Below are positions 13,262 through 63,357 of a DNA stretch of 64,000 nucleotides, one piece after another; within the stretch, counting starts at the first letter, position 1; every line of letters begins with the position of its first letter. Under the pieces are notes generated by a model that was not told the DNA's origin, did no database searches, and was given only the letters and a program-made list of their open reading frames with translations. Source of the DNA: Paracoccaceae bacterium (GTDB lineage: Bacteria > Pseudomonadota > Alphaproteobacteria > Rhodobacterales > Rhodobacteraceae); assembly GCA_965198725.1 (NCBI GenBank), contig CBDAPX010000001.1, positions 915,966 to 979,965 of the forward strand, written 5' to 3'. Both the position numbers and the translations under genes were made by a program.

Positions 13262-13302
13262 TGAACCGCCCCAGTTTTGGCGGAGACTATTGAGTTCGTA
13301 TT

Positions 13303-16667: not shown

Positions 16668-16740
16668 ACAACCCTTTGCCGGGGCCAGATTGTAGCCTGT
16701 GCCGGGGAGAGACATCAGCGAACCAGAGCCACAGCGTCAG

Positions 16741-17919
16741 ATGCAGATCGAAATCCGTGTATTGGGCAGTTTGCGCGACATTGATGCCGCCGATTGGGAT
16801 GCGTGTGCCTGTCCTGAAACGGCTGACGGCGGCCGTCCGGTCGATCCTTTCACCACGCACCGTTTTTTGAGCGCGTTGGAGCAGAGCAATTCGGTTGGCG
16901 CCGGGACAGGCTGGCAGCCGCAATACCTTGCCGCCTATCAGGACGGGCTGTTGATCGGCTGCGCGCCGCTTTATGCCAAATCACACAGCCAGGGTGAGTA
17001 CATTTTTGACCACAACTGGGCCCATGCCTATGAACGGGCCGGCGGGCGGTATTACCCTAAGCTTCAGGTCGCGGTCCCGCACACGCCCGCAACCGGGCGC
17101 CGGTTGCTTGCACGTCCGGGGTATGAGGCGACCGCCCAAGCCGCCTTGGTGCAAGGGGCCGTTCAGCTTGCATCAGACAATAATGTCAGTTCGCTACATC
17201 TGACATTCTGCACCGAAGAAGAGGCCGAAGCCGGCACCGAAATGGGCTTGATGCGGCGGGTGACGCAACAGTTTCACTGGCTGAATGGCGATTACCCTGA
17301 CTTTGACGGGTTTCTGGGCAGCCTGTCATCGCGCAAGCGCAAGAATATCCGCAAAGAACGTAAGCAGGCGCATGGGTTTGGCGGTGAAATAGAGGTGTTT
17401 TCGGGCGACGATCTGCGCCCCGAGCATTGGGACGCCTTTTGGGTCTTTTACCAAGACACGGGCGCGCGAAAATGGGGTACACCTTATCTGACGCGCAAGT
17501 TCTTTGACCTTGTTCAGGAAAGCCTGCGTGACGACGTGGCACTCGTACTGGCGTCGCGCGAAGGTCGCTATGTGGCCGGCGCATTGAACTTCATCGGGCG
17601 CAACACGCTTTTTGGCCGTTATTGGGGCTGCATCGAGCACCACCCCTGCCTGCATTTCGAGCTTTGCTATTATCAGGCGATTGATATGGCCATTCAGATG
17701 GGCCTTGACCGTGTCGAGGCGGGCGCGCAGGGCGAGCATAAGCTGGCGCGTGGATACCTTCCGACGCAGACGCACAGCTTGCATTGGGTGGGCGACCCGG
17801 GGTTCGCAAATGCAATCGACCAGTATCTGGTCGCCGAACGCGCCGCGATTGAAGAAGAAATTGAGATCCTGACCGATTATGGTCCGTTCAAGAAAGTGGA
17901 TATCGAGGAACAGCAATGA
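16741..17919 (+). CDS. DUF482 / FemAB-like GNAT-fold protein
   Basis: Start at MQIEIRVL; ...[23 protein letters not shown]......L.G..PLY.KSHS.GEY.FDH.WA.AY conserved family block. Confidence 0.7.
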
Positions 17920-24840: not shown

Positions 24841-25413
24841 ATGACCTCAGAAACGCCGCCGACCGCCCTGGACTTGCCCATGGTGGATCCGTTGCCTGAA
24901 GCCACGCAAAAGTATTTTGACATCTGTCAGGAAAAGCTTGGGATGGTGCCGAACGTGCTAAAGGCGCATGCCTTTGACGTCGAAAAGCTGAACGCCTTTA
25001 CCAACCTCTATAACAATCTGATGTTGGCAGAGAGCGGTTTGTCCAAGCTGGATCGTGAAATGATCGCGGTTGTGGTGTCGTCCATCAACCGCTGTTTCTA
25101 TTGCCTCGTCGCCCATGGCGCAGCTGTCAGAGAGTTGTCGGGCGATCCGGTTCTGGGTGAAATGCTGGTCATGAACTATCGGGTCGCAGACATGTCCGAT
25201 CAACAACGCGCGATGCTCGATTTCGCGGCCAAGCTAACGACGTCGAGCGCCAGTGTTGAAGAAGCTGATCGCGCCGCATTGCGCGCGGTCGGGTTCACCG
25301 AGCGGGACATTTGGGACATCGTCAATGTTGCGGCGTTTTTTAACATGACCAATCGCGTGGCCAGCGGAACGGATATGCGTCCGAACGCGGAATATCACGC
25401 GCAAAACAGATGA
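24841..25413 (+). CDS. AhpD-like peroxidase-related enzyme (carboxymuconolactone decarboxylase family)
   Basis: Start MTSETPP; ...SSINRCFYCLVAHG (CxxC..H motif). Confidence 0.8.
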   Translation: MTSETPPTALDLPMVDPLPEATQKYFDICQEKLGMVPNVLKAHAFDVEKLNAFTNLYNNLMLAESGLSKLDREMIAVVVSSINRCFYCLVAHGAAVRELSGDPVLGEMLVMNYRVADMSDQQRAMLDFAAKLTTSSASVEEADRAALRAVGFTERDIWDIVNVAAFFNMTNRVASGTDMRPNAEYHAQNR

Positions 25414-26345
25414 TCCGGCAAACTCTTCTTTGTCTGGTTTGGGCCTTTTGCGCCGGTCCGGTATGGGCCCAGTCAATCTCTGTGCCGGCGGGGGCGCAAG
25501 AGGTGAGCAGTCGCCCAAGCGCGTTGGACAGCTATGACCTTCCCGTTGCCCCTTTTGCAAATGGCGTTTTGCCGATCGAAGCTTTTGAGGGGCGGCTGGA
25601 ACGGCGGTCGTGGCGTGTGGACAGCACGTCGCTGACCACTTTGCAAATCACTGATCCGATCAAAACCCAATTGGTTGAACAGGGGTTCGACGTCATATTC
25701 GAATGCCGCGACACAGAGTGTGGCGGCTTTGATTTTCGCTTTGCAACAGAGGTGATCCCGGCGCCAGACATGTTTGTGGACATCGGCGATTATCGGTTTT
25801 TGAGCGCGACGCGCGGGTCGGCAGAGGCGGTTTCCCTTTTGGTGAGTGGTGGTCAGTCGGCCTCTTACCTTCAGCTTATTTCGGTGTTGCCGACCGATGC
25901 GGTGACACCCTCTGCAGTGGAAACCGTCCCTGTATCTGCTTCGGGGCCTGAAACGCCGGAGGCGACGGCGGATCTTATCGATGCGTTGATGACCCAAGGC
26001 CACGTGGTTCTGCCGGATCTCGAATTTGCACAAGGCAGTTTTATCCTGAACGACGGACCCTTCCCGTCGCTTGCGACGATGGCAGATTTTCTGGTGTCGC
26101 GCCCGGAAATCCGGATCGCTCTTGTGGGTCATACGGACAGCACGGGCAGCCTGCAAAGCAACTTGGACCTGTCAAAACAACGCGCCGAAGCTGTGTTGTC
26201 GCGGTTGTCCGAGGCCTATGGCGTTCCGGCCGAACAGCTGGACGCCCATGGCGTCGGATACCTGGCGCCGTTGCATTCCAACGCGACAGAAGCCGGGCGT
26301 GAAGGCAACCGGAGGGTCGAGGCGATCCTTGTGTCGGGATCATAA
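25410..26345 (+). CDS. OmpA-family protein with signal peptide
   Basis: Signal LLCLVWAFCAGPVWAQS; C-terminal ...IALVGHTDSTGS...NLDLSKQRAEAV...RVEAIL OmpA-C domain. Confidence 0.8.
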   Translation: MIRQTLLCLVWAFCAGPVWAQSISVPAGAQEVSSRPSALDSYDLPVAPFANGVLPIEAFEGRLERRSWRVDSTSLTTLQITDPIKTQLVEQGFDVIFECRDTECGGFDFRFATEVIPAPDMFVDIGDYRFLSATRGSAEAVSLLVSGGQSASYLQLISVLPTDAVTPSAVETVPVSASGPETPEATADLIDALMTQGHVVLPDLEFAQGSFILNDGPFPSLATMADFLVSRPEIRIALVGHTDSTGSLQSNLDLSKQRAEAVLSRLSEAYGVPAEQLDAHGVGYLAPLHSNATEAGREGNRRVEAILVSGS

Positions 26346-26543: not shown

Positions 26544-27512
26544 ATGGCGACATTCCGAAAGCTCCCCTCGGGCAAGTGGCAAGCCCAAATTGCCCGCAAT
26601 GGTATTCGCAAATCATCGAGCTTTGCAACCAAGCGCGAGGCCCAGGATTGGGCCGCGCGGCAAGAGTATCTTGTGACGAATGCCGAACCTCCCCAAACCA
26701 AACTGACACTCAAAGACGCCTTTGATCGCTACGCCCGCGAGGAATCACCCAAGCGGCGTGGTGAGAGATGGGAAGTGGTGCGCCTTGAGCGTCTGTCATC
26801 TGACAAGATTGCGGATAAGCGGCTGGCCGATCTTGAGCCTGCTGACTTTGCCGAGTGGCGGGATCGCCGCGCCAAAGAGGTTGCACCGGCCACTGTGCGC
26901 CGCGAGATGACGCTTATGTCATCGGTGCTGACAACGGCCCGCCGTGAATGGGGCCTGATCTCTCACAATCCTATCTCTGACATTCGCAAGCCCGCCTCAC
27001 CGCCGCCGCGAGATCGGCGTGTGTCTGCGGATGAGATCGATAAGCTCATCAAGGCGGGCGGCACGGACTTGTCCAAGGCCCAGGCCCGAGCCGTTCATGC
27101 GTTCCGATTTGCGGTGGAGACGGCTATGCGGGCCGGTGAGATCGTGGGGCTGACCGATAAGACGGTTGACCGGGATACGCGGGTGGCCACGTTGCCCAAA
27201 ACCAAGAACGGCACGGCTCGCAAGGTTCCATTGTCCACTGCCGCGCTCGGCCTCTTGGATGAGTTGCCCGAAACCGATGGCCCGCTGTTCGATCTGAGCA
27301 ATCAGCAGATCGATGCGATGTTCCGCAAGGCGCGGGATAAATCAGAGATTGAGGATTTGCGTTTCCACGATAGCCGCCATGAGGCGATCACGCGGCTGGC
27401 GAAAAAGGTGGATGTTCTGAGCCTGGCCCGAATGGTGGGGCACAAAGACGTTAAGATGCTGATGATCTATTATAACGAAACCGCCGAGGAACTGGCTCAG
27501 CGGCTGGACTGA
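26544..27512 (+). CDS. int: tyrosine-type phage integrase
   Basis: 322 aa; MATFRKLPSGKWQAQI... SAM-like N-domain; ...FHDSRHEAITRLA...VGHKD..ML..YY catalytic R..H.R..Y pattern. Confidence 0.9.
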   Translation: MATFRKLPSGKWQAQIARNGIRKSSSFATKREAQDWAARQEYLVTNAEPPQTKLTLKDAFDRYAREESPKRRGERWEVVRLERLSSDKIADKRLADLEPADFAEWRDRRAKEVAPATVRREMTLMSSVLTTARREWGLISHNPISDIRKPASPPPRDRRVSADEIDKLIKAGGTDLSKAQARAVHAFRFAVETAMRAGEIVGLTDKTVDRDTRVATLPKTKNGTARKVPLSTAALGLLDELPETDGPLFDLSNQQIDAMFRKARDKSEIEDLRFHDSRHEAITRLAKKVDVLSLARMVGHKDVKMLMIYYNETAEELAQRLD

Positions 27513-29904: not shown

Positions 29905-30771
29905 TTAGTGCATGATCGACCTTTGGTCCATCTTGACGACGGTTTCGGGAGCCGGTGGGCGGTAGCCTAGAGCACTGTGTGGTCGTTTCGTGTTGTAGTG
30001 TTTCCTCCATTCCTCAATCAGGATTTGTGCTTCGCGCAGGCTATAGAAGATTTCGCCGTTCAAGAACTCATCGCGGAAACGGGCGTTGAAGCTTTCGCAG
30101 TACCCATTCTCCCAAGGGCTGCCTGGTTCGATGTAAGCCGCCCTTGCGCCGACAGCCTTGATCCAGTCCTGCACGGCTTGCGCAACGAACTCAGGGCCAT
30201 TGTCGGAACGGATGAACGACGGGATGCCGCGCAGAATGAACAGGTCGCTCAGCACATCGATCACATTGCCTGAGTTGAGCTTGCGATCCACGCGTATGGC
30301 CAAGCATTCCCGACTGTACTCGTCGATGATGTTGAGTGTGCGGAAAGCTTTACCATCGTCGGTGCGGCAGTGGACAAAGTCGTAAGACCAGACATGATCG
30401 CGGCGCTCTGGCCGAAGCCTGACACATGATCCATCATTCAGCCAAAGCCGCCCTTTCTTCGGTTGTTTCATTGGCACTTTCAGCCCCTCTCGTCGCCATA
30501 ACCGTTCCACGCGCTTGTCATTCACATGCCAGCCAGCGTCTCTCAGTAGTGCCGCGATCCTACGATAGCCGTAGCGGCCATACTGCCGGGTCAGTTCGAT
30601 CATATCAGCCACTAAACGTTCTTCATCCGGGCGACCCGCAGGTACTTTGCGCTGTGTGGATCGATGTTGTCTTAGAACCCGGCATGCCCGACGCTCCGAG
30701 ATGTTCAGCTCAGCACGAACGCGATCAATACAGGCACGACGACGAGCGGGGCTCAGAAGTTTCCCTTTGCC
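29905..30771 (-). CDS. IS3-family transposase OrfB (made as OrfAB by -1 frameshift near 30760-30771)
   Basis: First ATG at 30612, but the frame is open upstream (..LSPARRRACIDRV...ERRACRVL..). DDE core ...WSYDFV..., SDNGPEF, ENGYCESFN. Confidence 0.85.
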   Translation of the reverse strand, partial: GKGKLLSPARRRACIDRVRAELNISERRACRVLRQHRSTQRKVPAGRPDEERLVADMIELTRQYGRYGYRRIAALLRDAGWHVNDKRVERLWRREGLKVPMKQPKKGRLWLNDGSCVRLRPERRDHVWSYDFVHCRTDDGKAFRTLNIIDEYSRECLAIRVDRKLNSGNVIDVLSDLFILRGIPSFIRSDNGPEFVAQAVQDWIKAVGARAAYIEPGSPWENGYCESFNARFRDEFLNGEIFYSLREAQILIEEWRKHYNTKRPHSALGYRPPAPETVVKMDQRSIMH

Positions 30772-52129: not shown

Positions 52130-52704
52130 CGCTTGACCTATCAGTGCAGTGTTGGGATCGACCCGACATTAGACTTATGCGGCGTCAGGAGGTTTCTCGC
52201 ACGCAGGGCGGGATCACCATCAAAAAAGACATGGGGCCTGCTCTTTGGCATGTCTCGCTTTCGTCTTTTCCGGTAAGCCTAATTGAAGCGGATGCTCTGC
52301 ACGCACAACTCCAGGCTTTGGAAAATGACAGTGTGTTGATCAAAGGCGCTGTTGCCAATTGGCAGCCCAGTCATAGGGGGTTGCTTGATGGCGTTTCGAT
52401 TGAGGGTGTGTCGGGTCAAAGGCTGTCACTGGCAGGGCTTCCTGCGGGCTTGGTGCTTCCTATTGGTGCTCGTATGTCCGTGATTACCGGCCCTGGGCGT
52501 GAGTACTTTCAGTTGCTTGATCCGTCTGATCATGTTGGAGGTTTTCGTGTTTTGCCGGACATCCGCAATGTCTTAACGGGAATGAACGTTGAGCTTTCCC
52601 CGCCCTTGATTGAGGTGATGATTGAACCCGGAACCATAGAGTTCCAGTATCAAACGCGCCTCAAAAAGCGGGTTTCCTTTACTGCTATTCAGGTGCTGAC
52701 ATGA
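52126..52704 (+). CDS. distal tail / minor tail protein (hypothetical)
   Basis: 192 aa, ATGA-coupled to TMP; function by position only. Confidence 0.45.
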   Translation: MTLDLSVQCWDRPDIRLMRRQEVSRTQGGITIKKDMGPALWHVSLSSFPVSLIEADALHAQLQALENDSVLIKGAVANWQPSHRGLLDGVSIEGVSGQRLSLAGLPAGLVLPIGARMSVITGPGREYFQLLDPSDHVGGFRVLPDIRNVLTGMNVELSPPLIEVMIEPGTIEFQYQTRLKKRVSFTAIQVLT

Positions 52705-53315
52705 TTTTCGTTCAAGGTCCTGTCCAGACCGCATTGAATGGTCGCGCGATCAAGGTGCGCGATTTCATATGGTTCGTGGTGCGCGATCAGGACACGGGCG
52801 CGGATGTGCAGGCCGGGTTCTGGTCTGATGTGGGCACTGTTGACATGCAGGTCATCGACTCGCGCAGCCAGGCGGTGCAGGTGCGGCAGTTTGACGGGGC
52901 CGGGTCGTTGATCTCTGTCAGCCCAATTCCGCGAGTTTCCAACTTGACCGTCCAAAATGTCACGGTGGAACTGAGTCAGGTGTCAGATGCAAATGCCTTG
53001 ATCCGGGCCTATGATGCGCGCCAAGCCCGTGTCGAGATATTCCGGGGTCTGTTCGAGCCGGAATCGCTGGTGCAGATTGCACCGGCCTTTCCACGGTTCT
53101 TTGGCTTCGTCGATGACCCGGAGATCACCACGCCCCGCGAAAACGAGGATGGCAAGATCAGCCTGACCTGCGTGTCGCACACCCAAGAACTGACCCGGTC
53201 TAATCCTGCCACCCGCTCTGATGCCTATCAGCGGCAACGGAACGTGAATGACACCTTCCGGCAACATGCCGCTGTTGTGGGCAGCTGGGACATAAAATGG
53301 GGCACGGCGTCCTGA
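52701..53315 (+). CDS. tail hub protein (DUF2163-like, tentative)
   Basis: 204 aa; position equivalent to RcGTA g13; weak pattern similarity only. Confidence 0.4.
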   Translation: MIFVQGPVQTALNGRAIKVRDFIWFVVRDQDTGADVQAGFWSDVGTVDMQVIDSRSQAVQVRQFDGAGSLISVSPIPRVSNLTVQNVTVELSQVSDANALIRAYDARQARVEIFRGLFEPESLVQIAPAFPRFFGFVDDPEITTPRENEDGKISLTCVSHTQELTRSNPATRSDAYQRQRNVNDTFRQHAAVVGSWDIKWGTAS

Positions 53316-53316
53316 C

Positions 53317-53748
53317 ATGATCCGGCAAGCTGTCGATGCTGACCGCCCGAACATGGTTCGGATGGGGCGGGATTTCGTGTGCGCGTCTGGTTTGCCTCTG
53401 CCCTTTGATGCGGCATGGGCAGATCGGTCGCTGGCCGGGCATATGGCGCAACCTGACCGACTGGCGTTGGTGCTGGAACTTGATGGCGCAGCGCGCGGCA
53501 TGCTGTGCGCCGCGCAGGTCCAGTCACCGCTGGCCCCTGTGCGCGTGGCATCCGAATTGGTGTTTTGGATCGATCCGCCTGCGCGTGGCCGATGGGCGAT
53601 GAAAATGATCTGCGCCTATGAGGCGTGGGCGAAAGAACAGGGTTGCGCCTTGGCCAGTTTGGCCACGGTCGGAGCCAAAGGCGCGGATGCGCTTTATCGG
53701 CGGTGCAGTTTTGCGCCTGCCGAACGTCACTTCATGAAGGTTCTCTGA
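53317..53748 (+). CDS. GNAT-fold acetyltransferase-like protein inside tail module
   Basis: 143 aa; ...VFWIDPPARGRWAMKMICAYEAWAKEQGC....L......A..LY.R..F resembles the GNAT beta4-alpha3 acetyl-CoA loop. Confidence 0.5.
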   Translation: MIRQAVDADRPNMVRMGRDFVCASGLPLPFDAAWADRSLAGHMAQPDRLALVLELDGAARGMLCAAQVQSPLAPVRVASELVFWIDPPARGRWAMKMICAYEAWAKEQGCALASLATVGAKGADALYRRCSFAPAERHFMKVL

Positions 53749-56700
53749 TGGCAGTTTTCACAGCGATTGCGACCGCGATTGGCATTGGCGGCACGTTCCT
53801 TGGAACGCTGTTTGTCGCGGGCCTGAAAACCCTTGTGGGCATCGGTCTGAACAAGCTGGCCATGAAACTGGCCGGGAAAAAACAGGGTGATGGTTCGCAG
53901 TTTTCCGTTAAAAGCCAACTGCAGCGCGGAGCGGACCTGCCGCAATCCTTCCTGATCGGAAAGTGCGCAACCGCCGGTTCGCTGACCTATGCCAACACAT
54001 GGGGTGAAGCGGGTGGCACACCGAACGCCTATCTGACGATGGTGATTTCGCTCAGTGACATTCCGGTGCAGTCACTGGACGGCATTTGGGTCAATGGCGA
54101 AGCGGGCACCATTGGTGCAACCGCCCATGCTGATTATGGGTTCCCGGTCAAAGAGTTCCACAAGGATGGGAAAGATCATCTATGGGTGAAGTTCTTTGAC
54201 GGCACCCAGACGGCGGCTGATAGCTATCTGGTGAACACGGCGTCGAACGCGGAACGCCCATGGGATGCCAATGCCATCGGTCACGGCACGGCATACGCTG
54301 TGATGACGGCCCGGATCAATCAAGACCTGTTCAACGGCTTTCCATCCTTCCTGTTCGAACTGACAGGCGCGCGGTTTTACGATCCTTCCAAGGACAGCAG
54401 TGTCGGTGGCGTGGGCGCGCAGCGGTGGAGCGATCCGGCGACATGGGGCGGCGATGGTGATCTGTTGCCAGCGGTCCAGCTTTATAATCTGTTTCGCGGC
54501 ATGCAATTTGGGGACCGCTGGTTCTACGGCATGCAGGCCACCACCGCAGAACAGATGCCTGTGGCGCATTGGATTGGCCAGATCAACAAATGCCGCTCTT
54601 TGATTGCGGCACAAGGCGGCAATGAGCCAAAGTTTCGGTCGGGCGGCGAAATCGCTGTGGGCGCGCCGATTGCCGATGCGATGGAAGCGCTGCTGGATGC
54701 GTGTCAGGGCCGCATTACGGAATCGGGCGGTGTCTACAAGCTGTTCGTGGGTCATCCCGAAACAACCGTTGCGTCCTTCAGTGATGACGACATCCTGTCG
54801 ACTGAAGAGCAGTCATTCACACCGTTCTTTGGTCTGGCGGATACCGTCAACGGCGTGAACGCCAAGTATCCTGACCCCGATCAGGGCTGGCAGATTGAAA
54901 CCGCGCCACCGCTGAACAATTCCGACTATGAGGCCGAAGACGGTGCGCGACGGCTGATGGTCGATGTGCAGTTTGATCTTGTGCCCTACGCAGAGCAGGT
55001 GCAGCGCCTGATGCTGGCATCGCTCAATGAAGCCCGTCGCGCCCGCCGCCACACGTTCACGTTGCCGCCACGGTTCTGGGCGTTGGAGCCGGGTGACGTG
55101 GTTGAATGGACCAGTGCGCGCAATGGCTATGATGCCAAGCTGTTCCGTGTCGATGGGGTTCTGGACCAGCCCAATGCGGATGTGGTTGTCGATCTGACAG
55201 AAATTGACCCGACCGATTATGACTTCGACACGAATGTAGATTTCACACCTGTCGGGGGCGGATCGGTCACAAGCCCGATTTATCCGCCGCAGACGATTGC
55301 GGGCTGGACGGCGCAAGCCTCTTCGGTGCCGGATTCCACAGGGCTTGGCCGTCTTCCAGCGATCATGATCACATGGAATGGTGATGTTGATGATGTCGCT
55401 GCGGTGCAGGTGCGTGTTCGCGTCAAGGCGACTGGGGCTGTGGTGTTTTCGGGGCGCTTTGATGACGTGGTTGCGGGCACGGCGCTCATTGCCGAAGGCA
55501 TTCTGCCTGCGACTGAATATGAGGTTCAGGGGCGTTATATCCCGCGCAGCCCGCGCGATGTCGCGTGGTCTGACTGGTTGACCGTTATGACGCTGGATTT
55601 GCGTTTGGGCATCACAGATTTAGCGACGGAGGTTGGGCAGGCAATTTCCGATGCTCAAGCGGCGGCGGATGGCGCTGCTGCGGATGCGACCCAAGCCCTA
55701 CAGGATGCAGCGGATGTGCAGGCTGACCACAACGCGCTGACCAATGATTTCACCGGAACGCTGAACGCGGCGTTTTCGCAAAGGGATGCTGGTATCGCTG
55801 CAGCGCAGGCGGCGGCTGATGATGTGCAGGCTGATCATGATGCGCTGGTTGCTGGCTTTACCGGCGGCACGATTGAAGGGGCGATTGAAGCCCTGCGCGC
55901 AGAGAATGAGGCCAATATCGCGCCGCTTGGGGCATCTGTCTTGCGTGAGCCGCGCAGCCTCTGGTCGTGCAACGTGCATGTGGCCCGGCCTGATCTGGTG
56001 AAGCCTGCTGTGACCACGGGTCTGTTCATCACCGATGACGCAGATTTCGGGGAGTGCTTCGAATTTGGCGGGGTTTACAACACCAATCTTGGCCCAGCCT
56101 ATCCGGTCGAATTTGACCCGAACCGGGTCTACCGTATCACCGCCTGCTATAAGGTGGTTGATGATAATGGCGGCGCAGGGGTGCGTTTGCACCTTGGCGT
56201 ATCGACCCAAACGGGCACAACGCTTGTTCAGTCAAACATCCAGTCCGAGTTGCACAGCCCTTGGCTTCTGGTTGCCGATGGCCCGCAAACTTCGGTGCGC
56301 TATGTGTCGGGCGATGCGGCGGCGCTGGACGCCTATGGCATTGCCGGTTCTGACCGTATTGTCCTGACGGGGTCTGCATCGGCCAACAAGCTCTATCCCC
56401 AGCTTCGACAAAACAGTCGTGGTTCAACCAGCGGCAAGGTTCGGGTGGCCAGCATTGAAGTGGTCGATGTCACCGAAGCGCTGTCGGGCGTGAATGCCCT
56501 GCGCACAGAATTACAGAGCAATATCGACGGGGTCAGTGCCACACTGGCCAATGACTATTACACCGCTGTCGCCACCGATCAGGCCATTTCTGCGGCACAG
56601 CAGACCTTGCAGTCGAATATCGACGGCGTTGCCTCAGACCTGCAGACAAATCACTACACAATCGCCCAAACCGATGGTGCGATCAGCGCGGCCACCACAG

Positions 56701-59700
56701 CGCTGCAGGCGCAGATGGAATCGCCATCCGGGTCCATTGGGTCGCTATCTGCCACGTTGACCAGCGACTATTCTACTACGGTGCAGATGGATCATGCGAT
56801 TTCCGCCGCACAGACCGCGCTGCAATCCAGCATTGATGGCGTCTCTGCCGATCTGTCGAACAACTACTACACTTCGGTTCAGGTTGACGGCGCGATTTCG
56901 ACGGCCCAGACCACATTGCAGGCGGACATTGATGATGTCTTCAGTGATCTGGCGGACGCCCTGCCATCTGACTTTTCTGAGCAGGGCCGGTTCTGGACCG
57001 AAAGCATTTCGGGTGCGACGGCAGCAACGGGTGATGTCGATGCCAATGTGTCCTTTGTCACAACGGCCAACGATGGTCCGATTTGCCGGATTGATATTTC
57101 CACCACTGTGGGGGCGAGCAACCATATCGCCCCGCGTGGCCGTCTGCCTTATGTCGTGGGCCGCAAATACAAGGTCACTGTCACAGCCCGTCTGACCGGC
57201 GTTTCCAGCCTGGGCGATGGTCGGGCGTTCAACATCCAGTTTCGCGGTTTGAATGGCAGATACGGTTCGGTGTCGGGTGCGTGGAGCACATTCCATCCGT
57301 CCTTCGCTTCGGTCGATACATGGGAGGTCTTCACCCATGAATTTGAAGCTACCGATCAGGGCGCATGGGCCGACATTGCGCATTTACTGCCCTTTGTCTA
57401 CCGCTTGAGTTCCTATGTGCGAGCCGGTGCCTATTTGGACATCAAGTCCATTGTCATTGAAGATGTGACCGAAGCGGGCAGCATCGCATCGAACCTGCAG
57501 CAGAATTATTCGACCACGGCGCAGATGGATCAAGCCATCGCGCTTGCCCGGACCACGTTGCAATCGAGCATCGACGGTGTCGCGTCGGACCTGTCAAACA
57601 ACTACTACACCGAAGCCCAGACGGGCGCGGCGATCACTTCGGCCACCACAGCGCTGCAATCCAGCATTGATGGCGTCTCTGCCGATCTGTCGAACAACTA
57701 CTACACTTCGGTTCAGGTTGACGGCGCGATTTCGACGGCCCAGACCACATTGCAGGCGGACATTGATGATGTCTTCAGTGATCTGGCGGACGCCCTGCCA
57801 TCTGACTTTTCTGAGCAGGGCCGGTTCTGGACCGAAAGCATTTCGGGTGCGACGGCAGCAACGGGTGATGTCGATGCCAATGTGTCCTTTGTCACAACGG
57901 CCAACGATGGTCCGATTTGCCGGATTGATATTTCCACCACTGTGGGGGCGAGCAACCATATCGCCCCGCGTGGCCGTCTGCCTTATGTCGTGGGCCGCAA
58001 ATACAAGGTCACTGTCACAGCCCGTCTGACCGGCGTTTCCAGCCTGGGCGATGGTCGGGCGTTCAACATCCAGTTTCGCGGTTTGAATGGCAGATACGGT
58101 TCGGTGTCGGGTGCGTGGAGCACATTCCATCCGTCCTTCGCTTCGGTCGATACATGGGAGGTCTTCACCCATGAATTTGAAGCTACCGATCAGGGCGCAT
58201 GGGCCGACATTGCGCATTTACTGCCCTTTGTCTACCGCTTGAGTTCCTATGTGCGAGCCGGTGCCTATTTGGACATCAAGTCCATTGTCATTGAAGATGT
58301 GACCGAAGCGGGCAGCATCGCATCGAACCTGCAGCAGAATTATTCGACCACGGCGCAGATGGATCAAGCCATCGCGCTTGCCCGGACCACGTTGCAATCG
58401 AGCATCGACGGTGTCGCGTCGGACCTGTCAAACAACTACTACACCGAAGCCCAGACGGGCGCGGCGATCACTTCGGCCACCACAGCGCTGCAAGCAGCAA
58501 TGGAAGCGCCAAGCGGGTCTATCGGCAGTCTGTCTGCAACCCTGACCAGCGACTATTACACTGGTGTTCAAACCGATGGCGCGATCAGTGCCGCTGTGAC
58601 CACGCTGGAAGCGACGTTCGGGCCGTCCGCGCTCAGCAACGGCTGCATTCAAGACCCGACTTTGTCAGAGCAAGACGGGACAAAATGGACCCGCTGGTCA
58701 AGCGGTGGAACGCTCACGTTCTCAGATAATCAGGTCTATCCAACTGGGAAGAGTGCGCGCTTCGTCTGTGCGTCTGGCGACAATAGCGGCCTATATACAG
58801 CTTCGCATCGGGCCACATGGATCGGCGCAGAAAATCTGGACGCCTATGTCGTTGAGGTTGATTTCACCTTGAATTCGGGAAGTCTGAGCGGGGCCGGGGT
58901 TCGGGTGGATTGGGACAAAACGACAGGCGAACGCACCACACCGATTGCGCTACAGCACATGCAGGTAACTGGCACGACAGGATTTGTGCAACGTGCGTCG
59001 GCGGTGTTCTTGAAGCCCTCGAATTTTGCGGGCACGTTTGTTGATCACGATCTATACCTCTTTGCGAATTTTTGGGGCCTTCCGAATTCGCCAAAGGCTG
59101 CGAAAGACATTACCTTCCATCGCTGTTTCATCCGCCCCGCAACCCCGGAAGAAACGGGTTCCGGCATTCTGGCCGACACGCTGAACGCAGAGATCACCGA
59201 CATCAAGGGGCTGGATGTCGATGCTAGCACAGCCTTCGGCACTTTGATGCAGCAGCTGCAGGTGAATGCGGGCGGTACCAGCGCGACCATCACCAACCAC
59301 GCATCCGCCGTGGCCGAACTAAATGGCTTCAGTTCGGCCTTCGCAGGCGTGACCGTTGACACCAATGGCGGCAATATCGCGGGCTTGCGGGCAACGTCCT
59401 TCGCCAACCCGGATGGGTCGGGCAATGGTGTGCTGGAACTGTTGGGGGATGTGGTGGCCGAAGGCACACTGTCCACCAATAAGCTGGTTGTCGGTCTGGG
59501 CCGCAATCTGCTGTCAAACACGGATTTCAGCGACGGGCTACAAGGGTGGATTAGAACGGGCGGTTCCGGTAGCGGTGCAACCGCGACCTTGTCGCTGCGT
59601 CCGCCGGGTTCATGGGCTGGTGCATATTTTCCGGTTCTGCAGCTTTACCAAGGCTCGTCTGCAAGCGACGGGTATCGAGATGTCGAACATCGCCCGCATC

Positions 59701-60581
59701 TGACTGACGGTAGTGTTTCCGTTGGTGTGCCCGTGGAAGCCGGGCAATGGCTGGAAGCCAGTGTGAAAGCCTCGATCCATCGGTGTGTTTTTGAATTGCG
59801 CATTCGGTTTCTGGATGCGTCCGGCGCGCATCTTGCGTGGTCGGGCGTTATTGCAAGCGGCAATGGCGCGACATCGTCTTCGACGGACCCAGAACTATGG
59901 CCGGTGTATTGGGGGAAGGCTCTGGCACCTGCGGGTGCGGCCTACGCGACGGTTCATTATCGCAAGTTGGCCACTAATACGGGTTCGAACAGTTATCTGT
60001 TCATCCATAAGCCACAGCTTGCGGTTTCGCATGCAAGTGCGACCCAGCCCGCACCCTACAGCCCCGGTGGCACCACGCTGATTTCCGGCGACAAGATCAT
60101 GACTGGTGCTATCACGGCAGAAAGCGCCATTCTGGCCAGTGCCAGCGTGGTCGAAGCGAACATTCAGGATCTGGCCGTGTCCACCCTGAAGATCAAGGAT
60201 CAGGCCGTCACTATTCCCGTCTATGTGCAGGACAACGTGCTTCAGAACATCCACAGCACAACAGACTGGGTGACGGTCATCAGCGCGGTGATGGACCGGG
60301 AAGGCTATGCCACGGCGTTGCAGTTCACCGCCCAGATCGACGGTTATGGCGATGGCAACCTGATGTTCGGTTTCGCGCGCAACGGCGGGCATTTCAACAA
60401 TGGCTTCACCCAGCATATCGCAGGCAACGGGTCGCAAACCAATGTGACAATTTCGACAGTGGACACAAACACAGGCACCGGCCCGACCACCTACAGTGTT
60501 CATTGTCGCCGTGTCAGCGGCCTGAACAGGCATGGCCGCGTGTTCAAGAAGTTCCTGTCGGCACACCAGTTCAAGAAATAG
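53748..60581 (+). CDS. giant host-specificity / tail fibre protein (2277 aa)
   Basis: ATG overlaps GNAT stop (TGATG). N-terminus resembles RcGTA g15/lambda J-type phage-tail_3 domain, followed by 32-aa LQSxIDGVxxDLxxNYYT repeats alternating with about 190-aa beta-sandwich-like modules. Confidence 0.85.
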   Translation: MAVFTAIATAIGIGGTFLGTLFVAGLKTLVGIGLNKLAMKLAGKKQGDGSQFSVKSQLQRGADLPQSFLIGKCATAGSLTYANTWGEAGGTPNAYLTMVISLSDIPVQSLDGIWVNGEAGTIGATAHADYGFPVKEFHKDGKDHLWVKFFDGTQTAADSYLVNTASNAERPWDANAIGHGTAYAVMTARINQDLFNGFPSFLFELTGARFYDPSKDSSVGGVGAQRWSDPATWGGDGDLLPAVQLYNLFRGMQFGDRWFYGMQATTAEQMPVAHWIGQINKCRSLIAAQGGNEPKFRSGGEIAVGAPIADAMEALLDACQGRITESGGVYKLFVGHPETTVASFSDDDILSTEEQSFTPFFGLADTVNGVNAKYPDPDQGWQIETAPPLNNSDYEAEDGARRLMVDVQFDLVPYAEQVQRLMLASLNEARRARRHTFTLPPRFWALEPGDVVEWTSARNGYDAKLFRVDGVLDQPNADVVVDLTEIDPTDYDFDTNVDFTPVGGGSVTSPIYPPQTIAGWTAQASSVPDSTGLGRLPAIMITWNGDVDDVAAVQVRVRVKATGAVVFSGRFDDVVAGTALIAEGILPATEYEVQGRYIPRSPRDVAWSDWLTVMTLDLRLGITDLATEVGQAISDAQAAADGAAADATQALQDAADVQADHNALTNDFTGTLNAAFSQRDAGIAAAQAAADDVQADHDALVAGFTGGTIEGAIEALRAENEANIAPLGASVLREPRSLWSCNVHVARPDLVKPAVTTGLFITDDADFGECFEFGGVYNTNLGPAYPVEFDPNRVYRITACYKVVDDNGGAGVRLHLGVSTQTGTTLVQSNIQSELHSPWLLVADGPQTSVRYVSGDAAALDAYGIAGSDRIVLTGSASANKLYPQLRQNSRGSTSGKVRVASIEVVDVTEALSGVNALRTELQSNIDGVSATLANDYYTAVATDQAISAAQQTLQSNIDGVASDLQTNHYTIAQTDGAISAATTALQAQMESPSGSIGSLSATLTSDYSTTVQMDHAISAAQTALQSSIDGVSADLSNNYYTSVQVDGAISTAQTTLQADIDDVFSDLADALPSDFSEQGRFWTESISGATAATGDVDANVSFVTTANDGPICRIDISTTVGASNHIAPRGRLPYVVGRKYKVTVTARLTGVSSLGDGRAFNIQFRGLNGRYGSVSGAWSTFHPSFASVDTWEVFTHEFEATDQGAWADIAHLLPFVYRLSSYVRAGAYLDIKSIVIEDVTEAGSIASNLQQNYSTTAQMDQAIALARTTLQSSIDGVASDLSNNYYTEAQTGAAITSATTALQSSIDGVSADLSNNYYTSVQVDGAISTAQTTLQADIDDVFSDLADALPSDFSEQGRFWTESISGATAATGDVDANVSFVTTANDGPICRIDISTTVGASNHIAPRGRLPYVVGRKYKVTVTARLTGVSSLGDGRAFNIQFRGLNGRYGSVSGAWSTFHPSFASVDTWEVFTHEFEATDQGAWADIAHLLPFVYRLSSYVRAGAYLDIKSIVIEDVTEAGSIASNLQQNYSTTAQMDQAIALARTTLQSSIDGVASDLSNNYYTEAQTGAAITSATTALQAAMEAPSGSIGSLSATLTSDYYTGVQTDGAISAAVTTLEATFGPSALSNGCIQDPTLSEQDGTKWTRWSSGGTLTFSDNQVYPTGKSARFVCASGDNSGLYTASHRATWIGAENLDAYVVEVDFTLNSGSLSGAGVRVDWDKTTGERTTPIALQHMQVTGTTGFVQRASAVFLKPSNFAGTFVDHDLYLFANFWGLPNSPKAAKDITFHRCFIRPATPEETGSGILADTLNAEITDIKGLDVDASTAFGTLMQQLQVNAGGTSATITNHASAVAELNGFSSAFAGVTVDTNGGNIAGLRATSFANPDGSGNGVLELLGDVVAEGTLSTNKLVVGLGRNLLSNTDFSDGLQGWIRTGGSGSGATATLSLRPPGSWAGAYFPVLQLYQGSSASDGYRDVEHRPHLTDGSVSVGVPVEAGQWLEASVKASIHRCVFELRIRFLDASGAHLAWSGVIASGNGATSSSTDPELWPVYWGKALAPAGAAYATVHYRKLATNTGSNSYLFIHKPQLAVSHASATQPAPYSPGGTTLISGDKIMTGAITAESAILASASVVEANIQDLAVSTLKIKDQAVTIPVYVQDNVLQNIHSTTDWVTVISAVMDREGYATALQFTAQIDGYGDGNLMFGFARNGGHFNNGFTQHIAGNGSQTNVTISTVDTNTGTGPTTYSVHCRRVSGLNRHGRVFKKFLSAHQFKK
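56817..58493 (+). repeat. perfect 834-bp in-frame tandem duplication (2 copies + 9 bp) inside fibre gene
   Basis: 56817-57650 and 57651-58484 read identical by line-by-line comparison; identical antisense ORFs at +834 offset in the ORF track. Confidence 0.9.
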
Positions 60582-60590
60582 GAGGGCGCT

Positions 60591-60833
60591 ATGAAGGCTG
60601 CAAATACGACTTTGATTTCTGGTGAAATTTCGGCCACGGGGGAGGTATTGGCCGACGGTCCAGTCGAGCAAGCGAACATTCCAACGCTTCATGTATCGAA
60701 TTTGGTTTTATTCGAAGACGGGGTTTCGAATCCGCCGGATCAGAAACATCGTGCTGAAGCGGCATTGCAGGCCGAAACCACATTGGAAATTGGAGCGCCA
60801 GTTCTCGGTGGCTATGGATATTTGTCAGGCTGA
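60591..60833 (+). CDS. hypothetical protein
   Basis: 80-aa ORF directly after the fibre gene. Confidence 0.4.
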   Translation: MKAANTTLISGEISATGEVLADGPVEQANIPTLHVSNLVLFEDGVSNPPDQKHRAEAALQAETTLEIGAPVLGGYGYLSG

Positions 60834-61295
60834 CGATGTCGCTCTAACCCGGTAGTCCAGCCAATTGTTTTCGCTTTGCCAATCCAGATGTATAGCGCAG
60901 TTTTCAAGGAAATTTCGGCCAATGATGGCATGGTATGGGGCGCCTGCGGCCAGTCCTTCAACCGCTATCAATTGAGCCTGCTGCGTCAATGATATGTCGG
61001 GGAAAGCCAAGGCGCTGTTGAACGCAAAAACTGGTGTTGAAAGGCTAACGGTTCTCATTTCGCGGGTGGAAAACTCGCTGTGTCCTAGGCTTTTTGCTAG
61101 GTCCAAGTCTACCGTTGTTGTGCCTGCCCCGGTGTCAACCAACGTCCATATTGGTGGGGAAAAGGTGGACAGATCATTCGTCCAATTGGGTTTTGCCAAT
61201 TGGACGGAAATTACAGGCGCGCGTGAACCGACCGTGCTGCCGTCAATCGAGACAGTCACAAACTGGATGGGTATTCGAAGGGTGCGAATGGGCAT
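60825..61295 (-). CDS. retropepsin-like (clan AA) aspartic protease
   Basis: 156 aa; catalytic LVDTGAGTT and flap/dimer motif AIIGRNFL; no signal peptide; about 50-53% GC by hand count in 60841-60960. Confidence 0.7.
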   Translation of the reverse strand: MPIRTLRIPIQFVTVSIDGSTVGSRAPVISVQLAKPNWTNDLSTFSPPIWTLVDTGAGTTTVDLDLAKSLGHSEFSTREMRTVSLSTPVFAFNSALAFPDISLTQQAQLIAVEGLAAGAPYHAIIGRNFLENCAIHLDWQSENNWLDYRVRATSSA

Positions 61296-61313
61296 TTTAG
61301 AAACCTTACCTCA

Positions 61314-62156
61314 ATGGAGAAACACATGATCGACTTTACCGTCTATGACGGCCCAACAGGCCGCATTCTTCGTGTTGGGCAATCGCAGCCCAGCACCCTG
61401 CATCATCAAGCGCTTGGCGACAGCGAAGCCATGATCTTTGGGGTGTTTGATGCGGATACCCACTACATTTCTCAAGGGCGCGCGCGAATGCGACCCGTCC
61501 TACCTGCCATCACCTTGAATGGACAGGGCTGGGAATTTGACGGCCTGCCACCTGAAGGAACTGCGGCGCAGGTCCAGTCGCTGTTCATTGACGGCACCTT
61601 TGACATTGACGCTCGCACAGTCGCTTTGGCCGTGCCGGAACCTGCGCAGGTTCAGATCACCGCCCCATGGCCGTATCAGGACGTGCAGATTGAACTGGAC
61701 GGAACACCACAGGCACCCGTTGCCGATGCGCAAATTATTGGACCTGATCTGGATCGTATGAAGGACCATTTCGGCGCGGAACTTTACCGGCAAGCGGATG
61801 CTTTGATGCTGTCGATGCTGGGAAATCCTGACGAAAACACGCAAAAACGCTGGCTGGTCAAACGGGCGATCTTCGACAAGTTCGAAGCGGGCAACCTGTC
61901 AGAATCGGACCGCGCGGCACTGGCTGAAGAGGTCCGATATTCGGGCGAAACGGTTGAAGATCATCTGACGGTGATCGGCAAGAAAGTCGCATTCCAGAAC
62001 TGGGTGACATTCCGGTCAGACGGCCTGCGGGCCGAAGCCGAAAACCGGCTGGACGGGGCCACCATAGCGGAAGAGGCGTTGGCCGCGATCACATGGGCCG
62101 AAACGGAAAGCGCAAACGCTGTGGCTGAAGCGCAGGCGCTTCTGACAGCAGGATAA
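61314..62156 (+). CDS. tail fibre assembly/chaperone-like protein (tentative)
   Basis: N-terminus IDFTVYDGPTGRILRVGQ...DADTHYI resembles tail-fibre-assembly/DUF4376-type proteins; alternative start 61326. Confidence 0.4.
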   Translation: MEKHMIDFTVYDGPTGRILRVGQSQPSTLHHQALGDSEAMIFGVFDADTHYISQGRARMRPVLPAITLNGQGWEFDGLPPEGTAAQVQSLFIDGTFDIDARTVALAVPEPAQVQITAPWPYQDVQIELDGTPQAPVADAQIIGPDLDRMKDHFGAELYRQADALMLSMLGNPDENTQKRWLVKRAIFDKFEAGNLSESDRAALAEEVRYSGETVEDHLTVIGKKVAFQNWVTFRSDGLRAEAENRLDGATIAEEALAAITWAETESANAVAEAQALLTAG

Positions 62157-62252: not shown

Positions 62253-62531
62253 ATGGAGATGAGCGGGACAATGACAGAAAAGACCCTGGAGGCTTCTTTC
62301 TCGGAGGATGAGCGTGCGGCGCTGCATTCTCTGGCAGAGATGTTTCAAGATAAAGACTGCCGCGACGAACTGCGGACCCTTGTTCACGAGGGAACGACAC
62401 TGCGCGAGATAATTCTCGCGTACAAGGCCAACCGCCGGGTGATTTCGACCCTGAAGACGGTCGGCGGATTGATCATTCTTGCGGGCGGCTCCGTCGCGGC
62501 CCTCAAGGGCCTTGGCCTCTGGCCCAAGTAA
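62253..62531 (+). CDS. small membrane protein (holin/antiholin candidate)
   Basis: 92 aa with a single C-terminal TM, VGGLIILAGGSVAALKGLGLW. Confidence 0.4.
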   Translation: MEMSGTMTEKTLEASFSEDERAALHSLAEMFQDKDCRDELRTLVHEGTTLREIILAYKANRRVISTLKTVGGLIILAGGSVAALKGLGLWPK

Positions 62532-62555
62532 CAGACGCCATCTTGCAACCGAACC

Positions 62556-62582
62556 GGCCCGCCATCCGTGCGGGCCTTTTTT
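62556..62582 (+). terminator. intrinsic terminator 14 bp upstream of the endolysin start
   Basis: GGCCCGC-CATCCGT-GCGGGCC followed by TTTTTT. Confidence 0.7.
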
Positions 62583-62595
62583 ATGGAGAACTGAC

Positions 62596-63357
62596 ATGTT
62601 CGATCAAAACTGGCAGGCCATTGTCCTGCGTTCCTATACCGCTTGGGCGTTCTACATCCTTGCGGCGATCACCCTTGCGCCAGACATCATCTACCTGGTG
62701 GCTGAGCGTGACACCAACCCGGCTGTCTGGTCGGCCCTGCAAATCTGGGTCATTGTTTTGGGCATTCTGGGCCGTCTGGTTTTGCAACCCCATGAAGGGG
62801 CTTTGCGGCGGCGGCTTATTCTGGGCGTCGTGGTGATCGGCACAATCCTTGTTGCGGCGCAGGCGATGGCGCAGACTACGGAACGGGCCACGATGCGTGT
62901 CTTGGTGCCGCTGGTCATCAAGTGGGAAGGCGAACACCGATGCTCTGATGCCCGTCACCTGCATTGCGCTTATCGTGACATCGTGGGGGTGCCGACGCTC
63001 TGCTATGGCGAAACGCTGGGCGTTCGCATGGGGGATCGGGCAACCGATGCGGAATGCCGTGATGAGTTGGAACACCGTTTGACTGATGATTTCCGCGACG
63101 GCCTGCATCGGTATTTCAGTGACACCACGCGCGGAACCCGGCTGACACCGCATCGGGACGCCGCCTATGTCTCGCTAGCCTACAACGTGGGCATTCGGGG
63201 TGCTGGCCGCTCCACCGCTACGCGCCGTCTGAATGCCGGCGACATCGCAGGTGGCTGTGCGGCTTTGGGATGGTGGAACAAGGCCGGTGGCCGGGTTGTG
63301 CGGGGGCTGGTGAATCGACGCGCTGAAGAAACTGCGCTTTGCCTTCGGGGCCTGTGA
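62596..63357 (+). CDS. GH24-type lysozyme with three N-terminal hydrophobic helices
   Basis: IKWEGE...AYRDIVGVPTLCYGET...AAYVSLAYNVG lysozyme motifs; preceded by AWAFYILAAITLAPDIIYLV, VWSALQIWVIVLGILGRLVL, LILGVVVIGTILVAAQAMA. Confidence 0.8.
   Translation: MFDQNWQAIVLRSYTAWAFYILAAITLAPDIIYLVAERDTNPAVWSALQIWVIVLGILGRLVLQPHEGALRRRLILGVVVIGTILVAAQAMAQTTERATMRVLVPLVIKWEGEHRCSDARHLHCAYRDIVGVPTLCYGETLGVRMGDRATDAECRDELEHRLTDDFRDGLHRYFSDTTRGTRLTPHRDAAYVSLAYNVGIRGAGRSTATRRLNAGDIAGGCAALGWWNKAGGRVVRGLVNRRAEETALCLRGL

Follow-up and report, generated by a model that had tools for sequence, protein, structure and literature searches.

A prophage tail gene of 2277 codons

The window analysed in this work is a stretch of 64,000 nucleotides (nt) from a Paracoccaceae bacterium (assembly GCA_965198725.1, contig CBDAPX010000001.1, positions 915,966 to 979,965 of the forward strand), and our subject is the putative hub and central fibre gene of a prophage within it, a stop-free frame of 2277 amino acids (aa) at 53748-60581 on the plus strand. 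This fibre gene is the last tail gene, at the position of lambda J. It comes after the genes for TerL (40348), the major capsid protein (44211), the tail tube, a chaperone of the GTA-gp10 type (GTA, gene transfer agent), the tape measure protein (TMP; 49199, 976 aa), Dit (52126), a 204-aa tail protein (52701) and a GNAT acetyltransferase (53317), and an endolysin gene (62479) lies downstream. The ATG of the fibre gene shares nucleotides with the TGA that ends the preceding gene (TGATG). Since the closest relative aligns from residue 1 of the ATG-started protein, the ATG at 53748 is the likely start, and the alternative GTG at 53625 is disfavoured.

Contigs of two public runs of one sample, X1 and X2, agree with the window at every position of 53600-60700, with neither substitution nor indel, so the long frame is no sequencing accident, and the open reading frame (ORF) on which a first-pass annotation of this DNA had built is real and unsplit. 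A further run, X6, from another sample of the same study and organism, gave no contig on the fibre locus (56000-59300), from which it appears that the prophage, or at least the fibre gene, varies between strains. A megablast search of the fibre gene against 50,697 phage records returned no match.

Domain organisation of the protein

The protein was divided into the parts listed below, where HMM stands for hidden Markov model, CBM for carbohydrate-binding module and pLDDT for the predicted local distance difference test score of the AlphaFold models.

53748..55292, plus strand: hub, or Tal-like part, aa 1-515 (Phage-tail_3, phrog_5616, T5 pb3)
53748..53882, plus strand: N-terminal hydrophobic segment, aa 1-45 (MAVFTAIATAIGIGGTFLGTLFVAGLKTLVGIGL...), read from the sequence
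55293..55592, plus strand: probable FN3-like domain, aa 516-615 (leptin receptor FN3 matches and position)
55605..55937, plus strand: putative first helical segment, aa 620-730 (two 36-aa repeats; family profile of 56 members)
55941..56492, plus strand: module A, aa 732-915, an A/B-type jelly-roll ending in IEVVDVTEA and homologous to B
56511..56954, plus strand: block I of 32-aa repeats, aa 922-1069, 4.4 units (HMM; long helices in AlphaFold at pLDDT 65-85)
56961..57476, plus strand: module B, aa 1072-1243, a CBM4/16/22-like jelly-roll ending in IVIEDVTEA (AlphaFold, Foldseek)
57483..57788, plus strand: block II of 32-aa repeats, aa 1246-1347 (HMM; AlphaFold)
57795..58310, plus strand: module B', aa 1350-1521, identical to B
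58317..58604, plus strand: block III of 32-aa repeats, aa 1524-1619 (HMM)
58635..59183, plus strand: module C, aa 1630-1812 (all-beta in AlphaFold, pLDDT mostly 85-97)
59217..59537, plus strand: beta-rich linker, aa 1824-1930 (AlphaFold strands, pLDDT about 75)
59535..60062, plus strand: module D, aa 1930-2105 (NLLSNTDFSDGLQGW...), a distant CBM_4_9-like jelly-roll (AlphaFold pLDDT >90)
60063..60221, plus strand: short fibrous connector, aa 2106-2158 (...ISGDKIMTGAITAESAILASASVVEANIQDLAV...), of low to moderate pLDDT, with an I-x-x-G/A-x-I pattern read from the sequence
60222..60578, plus strand: C-terminal beta-sandwich tip domain, aa 2159-2277 (AlphaFold pLDDT about 95)

In the N-terminal part, Pfam Phage-tail_3 (PF13550) was found at aa 308-471 (nt 54669-55160), scoring 66.6 bits where Pfam's gathering threshold is 23 (E 3.1e-18), and the profile phrog_5616, 'tail fiber protein', covers aa 3-719 (E 2e-201). 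The only solved relatives of the hub found by sequence are the entries of the T5 baseplate hub pb3 (8hqz, 7zhj), with E 1.3e-9 in phmmer and 1e-12 with the family profile; Rhizobium, Sinorhizobium, Mesorhizobium and Paracoccus phage tail proteins are 35-49% identical over aa 25-625. These results bear out the first-pass annotation where it called the N-terminus J-like. Its second comparison, with g15, the megatron of RcGTA, found no support, as the RcGTA and R4C megatron chains gave no PDB match at E <= 10 (phmmer) or E <= 1 (profile).

The segment at aa 516-615 matches the FN3 domains of the leptin receptor weakly (E 0.05-0.5) and stands directly after the hub, where lambda J and T5 pb3 also carry FN3 (PMC7291167), and both points suggest an FN3-like domain. 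In the first helical segment that follows, the two 36-aa repeats (nt 55713-55756 and 55821-55864, DVQADH(N/D)AL...F TG) share 73% DNA identity.

It could be argued that the locus is a GTA and its long protein a true RcGTA-type megatron, orthologous to g15. A GTA-gp10-type chaperone domain is indeed encoded upstream, and one phage protein that is 39% identical in the hub comparison bears the name 'megatron'. The N-terminal hydrophobic segment would add to this likeness: the RcGTA and R4C megatrons have an N-terminal iris/penetration helix (PMC7296036, PMC10276861), and here aa 3-33 consist almost wholly of hydrophobic residues and glycine, with a basic stretch behind them, a resemblance judged by eye against PMC7296036 and put forward as an analogy only. 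We consider the GTA identity very improbable, given that the integrase, the DNA methylase, the full-size terminase and the element's own endolysin fit a prophage, that T5 pb3 is matched whereas the megatrons are not, and that the 204-aa neighbour is without the four-cysteine iron-sulfur cluster motif of the RcGTA and R4C hub proteins.

Beyond the hub, an HMM built from four 32-aa units detected 10 units, some of them partial, grouped in three blocks, the non-seed units with E values of 4e-7 to 1e-11. Across 31 distinct units from 18 proteins, the conserved positions are 1 (L), 5 (I), 8 (V), 12 (L), 16-17 (YY), 26 (I) and 29 (A), and the dominant hydrophobic period of the units is 3.556, which equals 32/9 and corresponds to three heptads plus one hendecad, with nine core positions in each unit. 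In the AlphaFold model of aa 905-1350 (mean pLDDT 78), helices occupy construct residues 4-86, 96-166 and 337-445, flanking module B. The repeats most likely build a shaft in the form of a three-stranded coiled coil, for which we would predict about 480 helical residues and a length of roughly 70 nm. The 32-aa repeat family is found in Vibrio phage and prophage tail proteins as well.

The first-pass annotation had described at least five beta-sandwich modules separated by the 32-aa repeats. Five modules are indeed present, close to where it had placed them; the repeats lie only between A, B, B' and C, and C and D are joined by the beta-rich linker. Since B' repeats B exactly, the modules fall into four distinct types, and the module ending I(E/V)VVDVTEA that had been proposed is a property of the A/B type and not of the others. 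The protein ends in a sixth beta domain (aa 2159-2277). AlphaFold predicts module B as a beta-sandwich with pLDDT of about 90, from an alignment of the module B region that was rebuilt with a module-B-only query, and the model of aa 1620-2277 (pLDDT 84.6) comprises three well-predicted all-beta domains, namely C, D and the tip, together with the beta-rich linker.

Iterated profiles over 278 retrieved relatives gave seven segment families. When these were compared by hhalign, A and B were related at 99.8% (E 4e-28), B and D at 95.6%, and B and C weakly, at 83%; neither the linker nor the C-terminal domain is related to the modules. The linker and module D make up the most widely conserved stretch, the linker being represented by 189 domains in the 278 relatives. 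The tip domain is carried by 88 relatives and stands at the extreme C-terminus in those that were checked. A role in trimerisation may be suggested for the fibrous connector that precedes it.

An in-register tandem duplication within the fibre

Part of the shaft, together with module B, is present twice in tandem, in two copies of 834 nt:

56817..57650, plus strand: duplication copy 1, aa 1024-1301 (1.4 repeats, module B and 1.8 repeats), 100% identical to copy 2
57651..58484, plus strand: duplication copy 2, aa 1302-1579, 100% identical to copy 1

The duplication was measured by a direct-repeat search and a script. Tandem Repeats Finder, whose limit of 500 is below the period of 834, reported nothing, and self-BLASTP of the protein returned the identity match only, the repeats being mapped instead by HMM and jackhmmer. 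The 9-nt microhomology GCGCTGCAA, which encodes Ala-Leu-Gln, the first codons of a 32-aa unit, is found at 56817, 57651 and 58485, and beyond the breakpoints similarity drops to background on either side. Because the boundaries all open with GCGCTGCAA, the duplication appears to have arisen via this microhomology, with the frame and the 32-residue register kept. The breakpoints thus coincide exactly with the opening codons of two 32-aa units, and the nearest relative differs for each segment of the protein; these observations support the earlier suggestion that the repeats act as recombination substrates.

Long tandem repeats without mismatches are a well-known source of assembly errors, and the insertion sequence (IS) transposase inside the prophage means that the element may be decaying. 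One may therefore ask whether the length of the protein is partly an artefact, the 834-nt duplication having been misassembled or the frame being broken in the real genome, as in a decaying prophage gene. The depths of the contigs in the two runs were as follows:

Left flank contig: X1 87, X2 527.6
Repeat unit contig (843 nt): X1 187.6, X2 1078
Junction contig (51 nt, 57630-57680): X1 90, X2 523.8
Right flank contig: X1 83.8, X2 515.2

Relative to the flanks, the repeat contig has 2.04-2.16x depth and the contig of the copy 1/copy 2 junction 0.99-1.03x, in both runs. Such depths match what exactly two copies, present in essentially all genomes, would give, and they confirm the duplication. In addition, all contigs agree with the window throughout 53600-60700, and the duplication preserves both the frame and the register of the 32-aa units. 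An artefact is already largely refuted by these data, and we regard it as hardly credible.

The cassette of spacer and module B would seem to have been duplicated very recently in the present strain. When genome contigs were scanned with the duplicated unit, no relative, and hence no single-copy ancestor, was identified, and the matches at IMG/VR loci L001-L011 span only 120-210 codons. A perfect duplication of such length was present in none of the relatives retrieved. Long near-exact internal repeats were seen in the relatives P0209, P0019, P0117, P0039 and P0151 (offsets of 470/781, 502, 115, 102 and 32 aa), which indicates that recent internal duplication recurs in the fibre family.

A large and mosaic family

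The word-indexed homologues number 221 and are labelled 'phage tail protein' or 'Tip attachment protein J'. An exhaustive search with aa 1340-2277 retrieved 773 representatives at E <= 1e-3, the longest of them 5318 aa, and query positions 472-800 were the best conserved. The relatives measure 1255-5318 aa, and their modules are shuffled, with up to six in one protein. For the 120 best full-length relatives the median is 1515 aa and the longest has 2356 aa; just one exceeds the present protein, which places the latter at the 99th percentile. Five recognisable modules occur in 5 of these 120, for example as B-B-B-C-D in P0096 and P0097. Lambda J has 1132 aa (PMC7291167), and the first-pass statement that the protein is far larger than typical siphoviral central fibres can be upheld only in part: it is about twice as long as lambda J and near the top of its closest relatives, but it is not unique in this respect, as the proteins of 2356 and 5318 aa show.

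Throughout the family a common order is kept, namely hub, helical segment, A/B modules with repeats where present, C, linker, D and tip, and modules are gained and lost within it. The nearest relative was determined for each segment:

Hub: P0001, 89% identity
Module A: P0003 and P0005 (Roseovarius), 52%
Module B: P0004, 38.5%, the highest among the 278 proteins retrieved
Module C: P0151 and P0122, 63-65%
Linker and module D: P0146, 77-84%
Tip: P0145, 86% (P0007, 67%)

The module D of P0001 is only 43-44% identical to the present one, and the hub of P0146 only 27%. We explain this mosaicism by an evolution of the fibre in which cassettes are exchanged, and change in copy number, at the boundaries of the repeats.

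The modules as candidate carbohydrate-binding domains

To what extent the modules resemble CBMs was assessed by structure and by profile. In Foldseek searches of the PDB, module B matched CBM4-2 of the Rhodothermus xylanase (3jxs, 2y64, 1k42) with E 1.5e-6 and a TM-score (TMt) of 0.54-0.55, and CBM16 (3oea, 2zew) with TMt 0.66-0.67, the E values for these two ranging from 1e-6 to 1e-4, and CBM22 and CBM4 were also found. The construct aa 1620-2277 matched CBM16 with TMt 0.63-0.67 and CBM22 with TMt 0.60-0.61, values that apply to the construct as a whole, and its PDB matches further include a tandem CBM22, SGBP-B, the CBM-like domains of the Cry1 protoxin, the lambda gpJ fibre (8xcj) and the central fibre of mycobacteriophage Douge. 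Among the matches in BFVD, the host specificity protein J of DSS3_VP1 was second-best (E 4e-31), and several tail proteins were described as 'CenC-like CBM'.

Several relatives hold Pfam-positive CBM_4_9 domains at other positions. A comparison profile was made from seven such segments, which have no members in common with the module alignments, and in hhalign it gave 96.9% for D (E 1.7e-10), 76.7% for B, 2.8% for A and 0.3% for C. The CBM-type jelly-roll fold is thus well supported for B, for D and, by homology, for A, and it is plausible for C. The CBM- or galactose-binding-like folds that the modules had been said to resemble are therefore supported at the level of the fold, as CBM4/9/16/22 jelly-rolls in Foldseek, and in the case of D by profile; no Pfam CBM threshold was reached. 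NCBIfam searches of the whole protein gave no CBM family above threshold, and no match of significance came from profile searches of the PDB with the A/B family or with the D family, the best match of A/B being again CBM4-2 (2y64, E 0.1). From these predicted folds, the modules may be expected to bind glycans.

An enzymatic role, as a depolymerase, was considered and rejected: no catalytic domain was detected, and the tailspike matches (CBA120 TSP4, K2-2 TSP) extend over only 150-190 columns, the size of one beta-sandwich.

Taking into consideration the position of the gene, the homology of the hub, the shaft and the fold of the modules, we propose, with a probability of about 70%, that the gene product is a trimer which serves an integrated siphovirus-type prophage as both hub and central fibre, with jelly-roll modules that would bind surface polysaccharide. 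Several observations weigh against this proposal. Neither the whole protein nor the isolated modules match Pfam CBM_4_9 (PF02018) or another CBM family above threshold, and 48 homologous segments also remain below the Pfam CBM threshold, with a match for none of the 21 of A/B type and for 1 of the 27 of D type (E 0.031). The TM-scores to CBMs are moderate (0.54-0.67), and the structural match list of module B includes the ligand-binding domains of EphA2 and EphA4 and MAM domains, which are protein-binding jelly-rolls. As Foldseek was read without query ranges, the CBM matches of aa 1620-2277 are not assignable among C, D and the tip. The sequence links of module C are weak, the surface of the A/B family is poorly conserved, and no binding residues were identified. 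As regards the shaft, its helices rest on a monomer model at pLDDT 65-85, and the conserved D-G and Y-Y-T motifs within the 32-aa unit could instead belong to another fibrous fold.

The modules of a central fibre need not be lectins, and they might bind a protein receptor or parts of the virion, as in the docking of accessory fibres, or stiffen and space the shaft. The missing Pfam CBM matches of the modules and their homologues and the EphA2/EphA4 and MAM neighbours would be expected in such a case, and in RcGTA and R4C the C-terminal part of the megatron holds separate fibres (PMC7296036, PMC10276861). Nevertheless, the structures closest to the models are genuine CBMs (CBM4-2, CBM16, CBM22) and phage or bacterial proteins that bind glycans, D is linked by profile to Pfam-positive CBM_4_9 modules at paralogous positions in relatives, and no separate fibre gene is recognisable between the fibre gene and the endolysin gene. 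We therefore think it unlikely, though worth keeping in view, that the modules serve purposes other than sugar binding.

A model for the hub and central fibre

For a lectin-bearing central fibre, a sequence of events can be proposed, taken from lambda, T5 and RcGTA/R4C. The hub (aa 1-620), with its hydrophobic helix and FN3-like domain, would plug the tail tube below the Dit ring. From it would extend the coiled-coil shaft, interrupted by A, B and B' and continued by C, the beta-rich neck and D, so that a trimer would display 15 lectin-like domains laterally. These modules would bind surface polysaccharide, be it capsule, exopolysaccharide (EPS) or lipopolysaccharide (LPS), in a weak, multivalent and reversible manner. 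The terminal beta-sandwich would then make the final contact, as does the C-terminus of gpJ with LamB (PMC7291167), and the signal from this contact at the tip would open the hub.

A more tentative idea, which we regard as doubtful, concerns the duplication. Spacer and module together might behave as a self-registering cassette whose copy number shifts at the Ala-Leu-Gln (ALQ) boundary, and fibre length and lectin valency might in this way be tuned, like an accordion, to the thickness or chemistry of the host capsule. If this were true, the window would have caught a change in cassette copy number just after the event. Module B, which is the one duplicated, is also the most divergent of the modules, and it may have a ligand outside those of the known CBM families.

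Genes around the fibre gene and left end of the prophage

The genes that flank the fibre gene, and other features of the prophage and of the host DNA to its left, are listed here:

52701-53315, plus strand: 204-aa tail protein, matching phrog_2048 (E 2e-43) over the C-terminal half only of the 390-position profile
53317-53748, plus strand: GNAT acetyltransferase of 143 aa, between the 204-aa tail protein and the fibre (Acetyltransf_1, E 3e-6; phrog_1249, E 6e-25)
60591-62156, plus strand: three ORFs of 80, 111 and 280 aa, between the fibre and the lysis gene
62479-63357, plus strand: endolysin ORF, with Phage_lysozyme only at aa 164-284
29905-30609, minus strand: IS-type transposase (rve, rve_3, HTH_21) in the early prophage region
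26544-27512, plus strand: tyrosine integrase, left end of the prophage
7917-10127: class A penicillin-binding protein, host gene
11743-13293: ABC transporter, host gene
16699-17919: FemAB-like protein, host gene
25410-26345: OmpA-family protein, host gene

The overlap of the GNAT stop codon with the ATG of the fibre gene suggests co-translation, and the acetyltransferase could modify a component of the virion or of the host surface. In RcGTA, the position held here by the GNAT gene is that of the g14 peptidase. Pfam and PHROGs gave no fibre-like match for the three ORFs behind the fibre gene, nor did NCBIfam for the 280-aa ORF, whose sole match is phrog_18216, of unknown function; the three could be accessory genes of fibre assembly or of lysis. 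The first 160 aa of the endolysin ORF, which begins at a TTG, hold three hydrophobic stretches, and either the start may be misassigned or the lysin may be membrane-anchored or fused to a holin-like part.

The DNA to the left of about 26.4 kb consists of host genes, and the prophage begins at the tyrosine integrase; it also carries a DNA methylase and the IS transposase, which may have inactivated it. No tRNA gene was found anywhere in the 64-kb window.

Relation to known tail tips and significance

The protein resembles lambda gpJ and T5 pb3 in the place of its gene, which closes the tail module behind TMP and Dit, in the Phage-tail_3 domain, in an FN3-like domain after the hub and in a C-terminal tip domain. 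It differs from gpJ in being twice as long and in having a helical shaft of 32-aa repeats with five jelly-rolls, and not FN3 and beta-prism domains. In T5 the hub, the fibre (pb4) and the receptor-binding protein (pb5) are separate proteins.

Of the designs described so far, the closest is that of the Tal extensions of Streptococcus thermophilus and lactococcal siphophages, in which a gp27-like hub is followed by a collagen-like shaft with one or two inserted BppA-like CBMs per extension, a short linker and, at the C-terminus, a domain of about 100 aa and unknown fold (PMC7533335; the comparison also draws on PMC7291167 and PMC6669499). The number of CBMs per Tal in these phages is three to six. 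Hub, fibrous extension, inserted CBMs, linker and small C-terminal domain are all shared; however, the Tal extensions are collagen-like, carry BppA-like modules and act on Gram-positive hosts, whereas here we have a predicted helical shaft, CBM4/9/16/22-like modules and a Gram-negative host, probably alphaproteobacterial to judge by the taxa of the relatives. Sequence homology between the two kinds of extension was not seen, with no search aimed at it. No Gly-X-Y collagen repeat is visible in the protein, and the BppA entry (5E7T) is not among the top 50 Foldseek PDB matches.

With RcGTA g15 and the R4C megatron, the latter of which carries a carbohydrate-binding domain (PMC10276861), the protein shares a hydrophobic N-terminal helix, its occurrence in an alphaproteobacterial phage-like element and a multi-domain tail tip with putative carbohydrate-binding parts. 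In those megatrons a C-terminal fibre-binding domain holds separate fibre trimers, whereas here hub and fibre form one polypeptide, with no recognisable fibre gene downstream. Closer relatives are the 'host specificity protein J' of the Ruegeria phage DSS3_VP1, with 39% identity over module D, and the 'phage tail protein' homologues of Roseovarius, Tritonibacter, Rhizobium and Agrobacterium, which have hub, linker, D and tip in the same order and differ in the number and type of their modules.

Our protein is thus a large but ordinary member of a widespread and little-studied family, and no new kind of system is revealed by it, since the design of a central tail fibre decorated with CBMs was already known. 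Central tail fibres determine which bacteria a siphophage adsorbs to, and those of marine and soil alphaproteobacterial prophages are little known, judging by the uninformative names of the homologues. The combination of hub, CBM-bearing extension and tip found in phages of Gram-positive bacteria recurs here with other building blocks. The most instructive detail is a read-verified case of fibre growth, in which spacer and module were duplicated in register via a 9-nt microhomology. For a large family so far annotated only as 'phage tail protein', these results provide a domain map, with which annotation can be improved, and a set of delimited modules on which receptor binding can be studied.

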